This document shows, piece by piece, positions 58,294 to 64,000 of a DNA stretch of 64,000 nucleotides. The notes under the pieces were generated by a model. It was given only the letters and a program-made list of their open reading frames with translations. It ran no database searches and was not told where the DNA came from. The translations under genes were made by a program, and so were the position numbers. Location: NCBI GenBank assembly GCA_965116905.1, contig OZ220732.1, forward strand, positions 2,656,001 through 2,720,000, in the 5' to 3' direction. This stretch comes from Longimicrobiales bacterium. GTDB lineage: Bacteria > Gemmatimonadota > Gemmatimonadetes > Longimicrobiales > Gaopeijiaceae. Numbering within the stretch: the stretch's first letter is position 1; the number at the start of each line of letters is the position of its first letter.

Positions 58294-58938
58294 TCACCCG
58301 GGACCGGGATCGCTGACGGCCAGCTGACCGTTCTCGTGGGGGGATACCAGAATCACATCCCCGGGATCGGCGGATATCCGGGTGCGCAGCGTCGTGGCGA
58401 GGTCCCGGGGGGCATCCGCGGCATCCGGGGCATCCGGGGCATCCGGGGCATCCGGGGCATCCGGGGCATCCGGGGCATCCGCGGCATCGGGGGGCGAGTC
58501 CCGCGCCGGCGCGTCCGCGACCGCGCGTTCGGGATCCGGCGGCGGTTCGGGGAGGAATGCAACCTCCAGCGCGTAGCTGCCGGAGGGTATCCGGAAGCTG
58601 CTGAAAATCGTGATCGTGCGGGCCCGGGGGCCGGACCTCACAATCGGTTCGGAGAGCAGCGTATCTCCGTCCAGCCCGATCGTGAGCCGGAAGGGAATCG
58701 CCTCGTCCGTGCAAACCTCGGTGGGGCGCATGTGCGGGAGCACACCCCTCAACTCCGCTTCGGTGGGCGGTCGGCATTCCTGCCGCGCAGGGGCGGGGAA
58801 GCGCCACGACAGTCGCAGTTCGGCAATGTCCGGATCCGCGCTCTGCCAGGCGACGCGGGACAGGACGACCGTTCCCAACACGATGCCGACGGCGCACAAC
58901 GCGCCCACGACGTGGCGGCCGAGGGTTCTCGTCGTCAT
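58294..58938 (-). CDS. Membrane-anchored protein coupled to the cytochrome b-FeS gene (C..HM..C motif, DAP repeats)
   Basis: ATG 58938 overlaps the upstream TGA; N-terminal TM; LRLSWR..ECR..LPHMRPTEVC. Confidence 0.7.
   Translation of the reverse strand: MTTRTLGRHVVGALCAVGIVLGTVVLSRVAWQSADPDIAELRLSWRFPAPARQECRPPTEAELRGVLPHMRPTEVCTDEAIPFRLTIGLDGDTLLSEPIVRSGPRARTITIFSSFRIPSGSYALEVAFLPEPPPDPERAVADAPARDSPPDAADAPDAPDAPDAPDAPDAPDAADAPRDLATTLRTRISADPGDVILVSPHENGQLAVSDPGPG
58411..58491. repeat. 9 x 9-bp tandem repeat (GGCATCCGG) encoding (DAP)n
   Basis: Read directly. Confidence 0.95.
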
Positions 58939-60473
58939 TGGGCCGCCCCTTCCACGGTCTCGCACTCGGTGTCGACTTCGATGCGCTTCTCCCCGGACGG
59001 GGCGTCGAGGCGCGCGAGCGCCCGCGAGAAGTCATCCAGCGCGGCTGCCAACGCACGCCGGTCGAAAGCGGACGCATGCACCACTCGGACACGCCGCCGG
59101 TCTACGCGCTCCTTCAGTTCCGCTTCCCGCTGATTGAACAGCCGCTCGACAAGCCACCGGGGCCCCTCCCGGCCCCAGCAGTCTCGCGGCGGGCAGGCGA
59201 CGACCAGCACGCCCCGGACACCGGCCCGCACCAGGTACTCCACGACCGAACTGTGCAGGTTCCCAGCGCACGACACGGGAAAGCGCGGCGCGTCGTCGTC
59301 TGCCGGTGCGCTCGCGGCGGACCGGCCGCACGCGACCAGCACGATGTCCCCCGGCCCGCAACTGCCGTGCGCCACGTACTCTCTGACCCGGGCCAGCTGG
59401 TCGCGCCCGGTGCGGCCGGGCGGTCCCACGCCCATGGGCGCGCAGGAGCCCGCGCAGATCCCGCAGCTGACACACGAGGCGGGATTCACCTGCGCGACAA
59501 GTCCGTCGCGTCCGTCGGTGCGCTCCACCATCCGGATGGCGTCGTACGGGCAGTCCACGTAGCACTGCTCGCACGAGGTGCAGAGCCGGCTCGACACCGA
59601 CGAAGGCTCTGGCCGCCGGTCCTCTCGGGGGCGGGTCAGAACGGGAACGGCCAGGAGCGCGAGCACGGCGGTGGCACCGGCGGCCCACACCAGTACGGCA
59701 GGTGCCGGGGCGACTGCCGGGAGCCAGAACGAATAGAAGATGTTCAGGGCCACCTCGCCCGGCACGCGAAGGAGGTCGGCGCCCGGCCCGAGCCGGACGG
59801 GCAAGAGGACGGCCGCTGCGGTCAGCAGTCCCACGGCCGTCCAGAGCAGCGGCCGCGGCGGAAGGAGGACCGGACGGGCAACCCGCGAGACGTGCAGCCA
59901 AAGGAACATCACCACGCCGACCGGGATGGCGATGTGGAGGAACAGGTTCATGAAGAAGAACGCCGACGGCAGCGGGTCCGTGCCGGCGAAGGTCCGCGAT
60001 ATCGGCTCGGAGAAGAGGGGCAGGGCGTCGAGCAGCCGGGCGCCCTCGGTCGCGAGAAGCTGCGCGTGACCGTCCCACACCATCACGTAGCCGGTCCAGC
60101 CGCATACATACAGGAGGAAGACCAGGAAAACGCCCGAGATCCATGCCAGCGCCCGCGGTCCCCAGCTCCGGCCCTGACAGAACATCCGGAGCGCGTGGAC
60201 CACGACGGCCACCACGGTGGCGTCGGCGGCGTACCTGTGAAGCGAGCGGATCCAGCGTCCGCCCCAGAACTGCGCGTCGATGCGGACCATCGACTCGTAG
60301 GGCGTGCCGATGCGGTAGAAGAAGATGAGGTAGAGCCCCGTGACGAGCAGCACCGCAAGGCACACAAGGGCCAGCGCGCCGGACTGGTAGAGGGGATTCC
60401 ACTTCCACCCGTACAGCCGGTCGGCCCAGCCATCCAGCCGCTTCAGGACATGGCCGAGGGCCTGTTTGAGCAT
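58935..60473 (-). CDS. Cytochrome b(N)-2x[4Fe-4S] ferredoxin-MvhD/FlpD-like fusion protein
   Basis: Four heme His (RSLH, VVH, FLH, WLH), WISGV/TGY cytochrome b motifs, CTSCEQCYVDCP and CVSCGICAGSC, then ACG..SCAG..ACPPRDC.GREG. Confidence 0.85.
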   Translation of the reverse strand: MLKQALGHVLKRLDGWADRLYGWKWNPLYQSGALALVCLAVLLVTGLYLIFFYRIGTPYESMVRIDAQFWGGRWIRSLHRYAADATVVAVVVHALRMFCQGRSWGPRALAWISGVFLVFLLYVCGWTGYVMVWDGHAQLLATEGARLLDALPLFSEPISRTFAGTDPLPSAFFFMNLFLHIAIPVGVVMFLWLHVSRVARPVLLPPRPLLWTAVGLLTAAAVLLPVRLGPGADLLRVPGEVALNIFYSFWLPAVAPAPAVLVWAAGATAVLALLAVPVLTRPREDRRPEPSSVSSRLCTSCEQCYVDCPYDAIRMVERTDGRDGLVAQVNPASCVSCGICAGSCAPMGVGPPGRTGRDQLARVREYVAHGSCGPGDIVLVACGRSAASAPADDDAPRFPVSCAGNLHSSVVEYLVRAGVRGVLVVACPPRDCWGREGPRWLVERLFNQREAELKERVDRRRVRVVHASAFDRRALAAALDDFSRALARLDAPSGEKRIEVDTECETVEGAAQ

Positions 60474-63570: not shown

Positions 63571-64000
63571 GTTTGGAGCCGATTGTGAAGCCGCCGACGC
63601 CCGAGGACGCGCACGCGCCCTCGCCGGCTGCCGTGCGCGGAGCCATGATCGGGCTGGTGGCGCTGCTGGGGATCACCGTCGCATGGTGGGCCCTGGCCCT
63701 GTGGCCGGTCGAGGGGGTTCCCCCGGCGTGGCTGGAGCGTGCCCGCGCGGTGTGCTTCAACGCGGGTCCGTCGGGGCTTCCCGATGCGTCCGGATGGCTG
63801 TTGCTGGTGGGGCAGCCGATCGGGATGCTGGCGGTGCTGATGGTGATCGCGGGCGATGCGGTGCGGACCGGGGTCGGACGGGCCTTCGCTTCGCCGGCGG
63901 GGCTGCTCGGGATCGCGGGCGCGGCCGGGGTGGTGGTGACGGGGGTCGTGCTGGCGGCGGTCCGCGTCGTGGATGCGCCCCGCGACGCGGCCTGGCTGGA
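63567..64000 (+). CDS. Membrane protein, partial (possibly the N-terminus of an SCO-family Cu chaperone)
   Basis: ATGA-coupled to subunit I; WWALALWP..RAVCF..GLPDASGW..GQP; the catalytic domain is not in the window. Confidence 0.5.
   Translation, partial: MSLEPIVKPPTPEDAHAPSPAAVRGAMIGLVALLGITVAWWALALWPVEGVPPAWLERARAVCFNAGPSGLPDASGWLLLVGQPIGMLAVLMVIAGDAVRTGVGRAFASPAGLLGIAGAAGVVVTGVVLAAVRVVDAPRDAAWL

Follow-up and report, generated by a model that had tools for sequence, protein, structure and literature searches.

A cytochrome b-ferredoxin-MvhD module, encoded divergently from an eNOR-type nitric oxide (NO) reductase in a Longimicrobiales genome, is a near-obligate companion of the main eNOR branch. 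We analysed a stretch of 64,000 nucleotides from this bacterium (phylum Gemmatimonadota; assembly GCA_965116905.1, contig OZ220732.1, positions 2,656,001 to 2,720,000 of the forward strand), referred to below as the window; the genome is a single contig, 97% complete. At its end the window carries, on the plus strand, genes for an Rrf2-family regulator, a small membrane protein, eNOR subunit II, eNOR subunit I and a Sco fusion, in that order. The module lies on the minus strand and comprises two genes coupled by an ATGA start/stop overlap, one for a cytochrome b fused to a ferredoxin domain and an MvhD/FlpD-like domain (the fusion) and one for a membrane-anchored partner protein. We give about even odds to the reading that fusion and partner together act as a wire dedicated to eNOR, bringing it electrons outward across the membrane from a donor in the cytoplasm.

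Module and eNOR co-occur across genomes

The preliminary description of this DNA had paired the fusion with eNOR and named co-occurrence across genomes as the check. We searched 251 Gemmatimonadota genomes that are at least 90% complete for subunit I (E 1e-100 or better) and for the fusion (E 1e-25 or better). Each was found in 59 genomes and both in 58; hence 58 of the 59 carriers of either gene also carry the other, and the pairing held up. One genome, G155, was counted in the denominators and otherwise only as one below-cut-off NirK-like match. Within the window's genus (19 genomes), ten genomes have both genes and nine have neither. There are two exceptions in the phylum. G189 has a divergent enzyme that reads H-G-T-Q-Q, and we found no module in it. 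The locus of G125 (L085 9830-11037) is decayed, with only the ferredoxin-MvhD end, the partner, and split sco and rrf2 genes left, and we detected no subunit I gene in G125. At 79 fusion loci, subunit II lies beside the fusion in 76 and the partner in 76, the misses all being at contig ends; at the three loci lacking subunit II, the contig stops within 200 bases upstream. The divergent arrangement of module and eNOR is typical of Gemmatimonadota; at the remaining loci examined, eNOR and the module share one operon, with the module downstream.

For the converse test, we took 80 metagenome loci from an alignment led by a Defluviimonas eNOR (the best 80 of 263, from 7 of 64 parts scanned). All 80 enzymes carry the Gln motif described below, and their subunit I is 51-61% identical to that of the window. 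Among the 35 loci with at least 4 kb of downstream sequence, a cytochrome b gene follows eNOR in 32 and the full fusion is present in one frame in 30; the 45 loci with shorter flanks were excluded from this count. A Defluviimonas plasmid likewise holds eNOR and the module set in one operon. The three species named for a cytochrome b clade termed PDWF-FeS in the available text of PMC4122944 are all scored eNOR-positive, at species level, in the listed rows of Dataset S6 of PMC11214002 (Murali et al. 2024). Our view of the breadth beyond Gemmatimonadota draws on one named plasmid, the source names of the relatives of one protein (P0344, discussed below) and two papers. The module is gained and lost with eNOR.

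The window enzyme belongs to the eNOR family

Subunit I (573 amino acids; 61849..63570, plus strand) retains all six histidine ligands (H66, H227, H276, H277, H381 and H383). Its nearest solved structures are ba3 oxidases, and its H227-S-S-Q-Q231 aligns with the H-P-I-V-Y (H233..Y237) of Thermus thermophilus ba3. Thus, Gln231 occupies the position of the cross-link Tyr that is the hallmark of A- and B-family O2 reductases, whereas the A-family oxidase of the same genome reads H-P-E-V-Y. Dataset S1 of PMC11214002 gives Q245, Y256, S318, H321 and E(II)21 for the Rhodothermus marinus eNOR. The window has the same set as Q231, the K-channel residues Y242, S304 and H307, and E(II)21, with a constant offset of 14 in subunit I. 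Subunit II (61289..61852, plus strand) has the CuA ligand set H124, C159, E161, C163, H167 and M170, with Glu21 at the K-channel entrance. In a quick tree of 48 subsampled rows, which do not include the R. marinus eNOR, all 43 Gln-type subunits split off from four B-type and one A-type subunit with 99% SH-aLRT support. All four rows of the genus Bin94 among those listed in Dataset S6 are scored for eNOR, and subunit I of the bin94 locus L011 is 94% identical to that of the window. A modified heme a also belongs to the eNOR family traits, and ctaA and ctaB are present elsewhere in the window genome. In the part of PMC11214002 available, the single eNOR assayed for NO reduction reduced NO (0.68 per second) and not O2.

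By these sequence tests, the window enzyme is an eNOR, a new member of a known family, and from its family membership it likely reduces NO to nitrous oxide (N2O). The preliminary description had made this call from the H-S-S-Q-Q motif and the six histidines, and had placed genes for a CuA subunit II, a small transmembrane protein and an Rrf2 regulator upstream of subunit I; all are present as described, and Gln231, the K-channel residues and Glu21 at R. marinus spacing reinforce the call.

A cytochrome b scaffold with altered quinone sites

The fusion (512 amino acids; 58935..60473, minus strand) exceeds the Pfam cut-offs for Cytochrome_B, Fer4_7 and FlpD. It has helices A-F, heme histidines at 79, 93, 180 and 194 in helices B and D (kept in 131-134 of 134 homologues), eight ferredoxin cysteines and four MvhD-type cysteines (382, 402, 427 and 432) that are predicted to bind a [2Fe-2S] cluster. 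Across the homologues the heme histidines, the ferredoxin cysteines and three of the MvhD cysteines are nearly invariant; 113 of the homologues retain the fourth. The stretch 277-490 matches HdrA structures and the HdrA2 C-terminus (E 2e-15). The divergent two-gene unit with a diheme cytochrome b, two [4Fe-4S] motifs and an MvhD/FlpD-like domain, as first described, is therefore borne out by both Pfam and ligands. Because helix F ends directly before the ferredoxin domain, bc1 topology would make the iron-sulfur domains cytoplasmic, with the helix of the partner returning the chain to the periplasm.

The quinone sites of this cytochrome b differ from those of Rieske/cytochrome b complexes. Where these have PEWY at the Qo site, the window reads L-N-I-F; homologues read x-D/N-x-F (consensus x-D-W/L/I-F), and distant ones DWFY. 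The cd1 position, Ala in cytochrome b6, is Leu, Val or Ile in 122 of the 134 homologues; bulky cd1 residues block quinol oxidation in bc1. The Qi-position His is absent in the homologue alignment, and the ef loop is kept. By comparison, the window genome's own Rieske/cytochrome b retains PEWY and W-A-T-K. We found no Rieske gene in the locus or in any of the loci mapped, and the genome's only Rieske motif lies at that other cytochrome b. A heme ci site was considered and rejected, since the N-terminal Cys of the YCLGG stretch in cytochrome b6, which we take to be the heme ci ligand, corresponds to a Gln here.

The partner (214 amino acids; 58294..58938, minus strand) has one N-terminal helix followed by C55..H69-M70..C76. 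It is modelled as an Ig/transthyretin-like beta-sandwich, predicted to be periplasmic, with a long hairpin C55-R56..E62..H69-M70-R71..C76 in which both Cys, the Met, the Arg and the Glu are conserved (C55 in 114, M70 in 123 and C76 in 115 of 141 homologues). Hence, the membrane-anchored C..HM..C protein of the preliminary description is present and its C55, M70 and C76 are kept, whereas its His69 is not conserved; as position 69 is often Asn, we rejected the reading of this His-Met pair as heme ligands. Foldseek returned no match to the partner model at E 0.001 or better, VIA-align yielded beta-sandwiches of a generic kind (best Z 7.5), its 50 rows containing no fold of the cupredoxin, Rieske or cytochrome c type, and a search of the ESM Atlas gave only unnamed clusters. 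The partner gene also contains a lineage-specific insert of PDA repeats, encoded by nine-base repeats (window 58400-58500), whose length varies among strains.

In 102 of the 150 best representatives (50% identity), the partner is fused C-terminally, such that cytochrome b, ferredoxin, MvhD and partner form one chain. A natural chain of this kind is predicted to adopt one compact four-part fold (pLDDT 96, pTM 0.93), and the model matches bc1 cytochrome b. The natural fusions and the compact predicted fold together suggest that the two genes of the window encode halves of one machine. A complex prediction of the cytochrome b domain and partner with subunit II scored 0.01 (mark 0.32), and we used it neither way.

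Both ends of the module vary. In seven metagenome loci, a paralogue carries [2Fe-2S]-FAD-NAD(P) domains, closest to BenC, MmoC and Fre and most like oxygenase reductases, in place of the ferredoxin-MvhD end, which points to a cytoplasmic donor. The reductase-type paralogue is often accompanied by its own copy of the partner, and some operons hold two full modules with different inputs. At the other end, the best 120 relatives of the long homologue P0344 all terminate in a cytochrome c with a CxxCH motif, and the Cys/Met hairpin is missing from every one of them. In this form (P0344, P0338 and P0368-P0485), which is from Chloroflexota wherever a source is named, cytochrome b, ferredoxin, MvhD, sandwich and cytochrome c make up a single chain. 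A table in PMC8756737, as far as available, includes a protein with b6, iron-sulfur and FlpD domains among carriers of a C1 cytochrome domain.

Direction of electron flow

In the outward wire, a ferredoxin or NADH-linked flavoprotein would reduce the MvhD-type [2Fe-2S] cluster, from which electrons would pass through the two [4Fe-4S] clusters to heme bH and on to heme bL. They would leave by the periplasmic hairpin of the partner (by the cytochrome c in Chloroflexota) for the CuA of subunit II, where they would serve eNOR turnover or hold the enzyme in a reduced, active state, as has been suggested for NosR. Outward flow is the simplest reading because the low-potential clusters would lie inside, one variant has an NAD(P)H-type input, another has a cytochrome c on the outside, and the quinone-site residues are degenerate. 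Since outward flow would spend membrane potential, an NO sink fits it better than energy conservation does. The genome offers two candidate donors, a 2-oxoacid:ferredoxin oxidoreductase and an NAD-linked formate dehydrogenase-like operon, neither of which is linked to the locus. The latter (G000:C1:3652741-3660687) is of a cytoplasmic type, with an in-frame TGA at the expected selenocysteine position and a flanking fdhD-like gene.

Several observations weigh against this reading. We identified no donor for the module, and the genome has no other MvhD-family gene and no reductase-type paralogue. The partner shows no known redox fold in the Foldseek and VIA-align searches, its position 69 is His in 88 and Asn in 35 of the 141 homologues, and the hairpin pattern failed to match 34 of 103 fused partner domains. 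The cytochrome c form comes from one clade, chosen by similarity to a protein that has it. Purified R. marinus eNOR, which gave two subunit bands, was active with N,N,N',N'-tetramethyl-p-phenylenediamine (TMPD)/ascorbate in the available parts of PMC11214002 and its preprint, so the module is unneeded in vitro, and the window genome's Rieske/cytochrome b-c complex could reduce cytochrome c. NosR-like genes occur near eNOR in eight metagenome loci that also carry the module; hence, the module is no simple substitute for NosR. It is missing beside three of the 35 well-flanked metagenome loci; L126, L134 and L147 have none nearby, and there is none with the H-G-A-Q-Q enzymes of the Thermus and Thermomicrobium plasmids (the plasmids only were searched) or in G189. 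These last enzymes form a deep branch in which we found no module, so not every eNOR requires it. Finally, 124 of the 134 homologues have an Asp at the acidic Qo position (the window has Asn), and the available text of PMC4122944 considers the Qo motif retained.

The conserved Asp would also fit a quinol-driven reaction, which we consider unlikely overall. Here, quinol would be oxidised at a modified Qo site, with one electron passing through the partner to eNOR and the other through bL and bH to the cytoplasmic iron-sulfur clusters and possibly to NADH. The kept helices A-F and ef loop are consistent with such a reaction, and the cytochrome c form resembles a bc complex minus its Rieske protein. 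PMC4122944 suggests, in the part available, that the whole subunit with its Qo motif works in other complexes, and the accessible portion of a preprint on Ferrigenium (10.64898/2026.01.22.701106) proposes a quinol:NAD+ oxidoreductase. However, the mapped loci have no Rieske gene and the partner has no recognised high-potential centre. The bulky residue at the cd1 Gly/Ala position, the missing Qi His and the window's Asn at the acidic Qo position also argue against quinol oxidation, and transfer from quinol to ferredoxin or NAD+ would run uphill and against the membrane potential, by established thermodynamics. The preliminary description had called the system quinol-linked. The predicted cytoplasmic iron-sulfur domains, the degenerate Qo and Qi motifs, the lack of a Rieske gene in the locus and the NAD(P)H/FAD paralogue make this term doubtful.

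Another possible role for the module is that of an assembly factor only. As a reductase spanning the membrane, it would then provide Sco and CuA with Cu(I) or with reduced thiols while eNOR matures, in the manner of CcoG, the cupric reductase of cbb3 oxidases. In its operon, the module usually comes after the genes for heme o synthase and Sco. According to the available text of PMC7558416, CcoG likewise combines membrane helices and two [4Fe-4S] clusters with an Ig-like periplasmic domain at its C-terminus; the partner is modelled as a sandwich of the Ig-like type, and its Cys/Cys/Met/(His) hairpin could bind copper. Against this, the cytochrome c that replaces the hairpin in the Chloroflexota form suggests repeated electron transfer, and some operons contain two full modules with different inputs; Pfam and NCBIfam scans gave no CcoG/FixG family match, and CuA oxidases generally assemble without any such module. 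We regard this role as improbable, to about the same degree as the quinol-driven reaction.

An outward wire can be extended to a fuller picture, in which a descendant of the complex III cytochrome b, lacking the Rieske protein, is reversed into a wire with swappable plugs (ferredoxin-MvhD or an NAD(P)H/FAD reductase at the input, hairpin or cytochrome c at the output). This wire would be the physiological donor of the main eNOR branch, bypassing the quinone pool. Sponge symbionts unable to produce NO or to remove N2O would use it to turn NO from host or community into N2O. We hold this picture tentatively, at appreciably less than an even chance. If the module works as an outward wire, it would put the cytochrome b scaffold of complex III to a new use, one that does without quinone chemistry.

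NO in the window's lineage

The window genome has no NirK, NarG, NapA or NrfA over cut-off, no NosZ and no full-length NirS (one marginal propeller match), and its only other heme-copper enzyme is of the A family. In the window's family, 14 of 15 eNOR genomes have no match to NirK-like, NirS or NosZ proteins. Outside it, a gene for a nitrite or N2O reductase is present in 43 of 44 genomes with eNOR, compared with 96 of 168 genomes lacking eNOR, with the caveat that kin genomes are not independent; five of six NirS genomes have eNOR. These gene associations support an NO role across the phylum. For the window's lineage, lacking nitrite and N2O reductases, we infer that NO made by others is scavenged from outside the cell and released as N2O. 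The preliminary description had suggested that the enzyme helps a host-associated bacterium to respire or detoxify NO. Detoxification is supported, whereas respiration of NO within denitrification is unlikely, since NirK, NirS, NarG, NapA, NrfA and NosZ were not found in the genome over cut-off.

The absence of these reductases might also suggest that the enzyme of this lineage is not an NO reductase at all, and that it reduces O2 or has another activity that the module serves. That a single eNOR has been assayed, and that the Rrf2 protein is not NsrR (below), would accord with this. However, the cross-link Tyr is absent, the assayed enzyme reduced NO and not O2, the gene association outside the family is as given above, and distant eNOR loci lie among nir, nosR, hemerythrin and Crp/Fnr-type genes. 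We consider this reading very improbable.

Where relatives of the fusion gene are named, nearly all come from Gemmatimonadota, many of them from Longimicrobiales, and several of the closest named sets of metagenome-assembled genomes presumably derive from sponges. In a sequencing run labelled sponge metagenome, which covers the locus stretch, 0.60 of the sampled words are present; runs X4 and X5 contain almost none. One sponge metatranscriptome run covers the locus, in contigs of flat depth over genes, spacers and unrelated neighbours, and thus does not demonstrate transcription. We found no literature on eNOR in sponge symbionts. If the inferred physiology is right, sponge symbionts with a stand-alone eNOR would be an overlooked NO sink and N2O source.

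Other features of the locus and its surroundings

The divergent genes are separated by 140 bases with an AT-rich core (60474..60613), in which we found no sigma-70 consensus. The Rrf2-family regulator (60614..61066, plus strand) has the pattern C-x6-C-x5-C-x2-H-x2-W. It is not NsrR (25 bits against a cut-off of 182, NCBIfam NF008240) and not IscR by curated cut-offs; only the Rrf2 superfamily cut-off was passed. The next gene (61067..61273, plus strand), which has its own ATG and a purine-rich stretch upstream, encodes a single-helix membrane protein that is likely a third small subunit of the enzyme. It shares one open frame with rrf2, with no stop between them. The two are in frame in 17 of the 67 loci that have both genes, all of them close relatives. 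Read-through may yield a membrane-tethered regulator beside the free small subunit.

The last gene of the window (63567..64000, plus strand, running on to 64622 and so cut by the window end) encodes a membrane-anchored Sco1/SenC copper chaperone with a CxxxC motif. In Gemmatimonadota eNOR loci, including that of the window (L001 7567-8622), the Sco protein begins with a three-helix domain that matches no known family and carries a conserved Cys-Phe (64 loci); those of metagenome loci end instead in a C-x-x-Y-D-P motif and a helix.

At L083 (7983-9668), on a Thermus thermophilus plasmid, the eNOR has Lys in place of the low-spin heme His and adjoins nitrite reductase genes and an Rrf2 gene, with no module. 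Eighteen metagenome loci, L129 (7053-8441, plus strand) and 17 others, encode a subunit I paralogue of about 460 amino acids that has lost most active-site ligands. Hemerythrin genes adjoin eNOR operons in 28 of loci L081-L165, and NosR-like, Crp/Fnr-type and heme d1 synthesis genes recur near metagenome eNOR loci.

Elsewhere in the window, a plus-strand gene (52163-56914) encodes a protein of 1583 amino acids that combines Ig-like and leucine-rich repeats with a weak match to a metallopeptidase; it is of a eukaryote-like kind that we take to be common in sponge symbionts. A BrnT/BrnA type II toxin-antitoxin pair lies at 50573-51062 (minus strand), and there seems to be a partial second copy of the antitoxin region near 51800-52000.

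Comparison with known systems

Among known systems, the eNOR family as described in PMC11214002 for R. marinus shares with the window the Gln, the six His, the K-channel Tyr, Ser and His, Glu21, CuA, and ctaA/ctaB; the window genome differs in having no nitrite or N2O reductase. The main-text portion, Dataset S1 and the S6 rows of that paper mention no cytochrome b module. eNOR is a widespread and recently recognised source of the greenhouse gas N2O, and the literature we found, in the parts available, names no physiological electron donor for it.

The preliminary description had called the module uncharacterised. This holds for its function; its architecture has already been published (PMC4122944), as has its occurrence in one eNOR operon (the Ferrigenium preprint). 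The PDWF-FeS clade of Kao and Hunte (2014; PMC4122944) has the same cytochrome b fused to 4Fe-4S and MvhD-like domains, with PDWF or PDWY at the Qo site compared with L-N-I-F in the window (by motif description); the available text gives no eNOR link, partner domain or function. The eNOR operon of Ferrigenium straubiae, in the accessible portion of the preprint, has two cytochrome b-FeS genes, one with FAD/NADH domains, and their products were in the proteome under denitrifying growth; a supercomplex was suggested. In the preprint, these genes are described as "rather unusual" and as candidate markers of Ferrigenium, whereas we find them to be the rule beside the main eNOR branch; the preprint also proposes the opposite direction, from quinol to NAD+, to the outward flow favoured here. 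The window differs from this operon in having the ferredoxin-MvhD form only and no subunit I-like "scaffold" gene. The shortened subunit I paralogue of the metagenome loci, not found in the window genome, is probably that scaffold gene. In the literature found, nothing addresses module function, the partner or a general eNOR link; subscription papers and supplements may bear on these points. The new elements are the two-way co-occurrence count, the split-versus-fused partner, the exchange of hairpin for cytochrome c, the argument for outward flow and a stand-alone eNOR in a sponge-associated lineage.

Functionally, the module was first likened to NosR/NirI, and our analysis supports this as an analogy. 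NosR, in the available text of PMC7660919, also has two cytoplasmic [4Fe-4S] clusters and a periplasmic domain and is a proposed donor to its partner enzyme. NosR differs in its covalent periplasmic FMN and NapH-like membrane part, where the module has two b hemes and an MvhD domain; neither fusion nor partner matches the NosR family NF046105, which a neighbour gene at L097 matches strongly. CcoG/FixG, which shares the features given above and likewise lies beside a heme-copper enzyme, differs from the module in having no b hemes or MvhD domain, and the shared sandwich fold is generic. HdrA2-type fusions share the C-terminal ferredoxin and MvhD parts; unlike HdrA, the module has no FAD domain, and its locus has no heterodisulfide reductase or hydrogenase genes. 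Rieske/cytochrome b complexes share the four heme histidines, and the module differs from them in lacking an adjacent Rieske gene and the canonical Qo motif. Judged by its sequence, the module would thus be a variant of a cytochrome b of published architecture, for which a function in supplying electrons to eNOR is suggested here.

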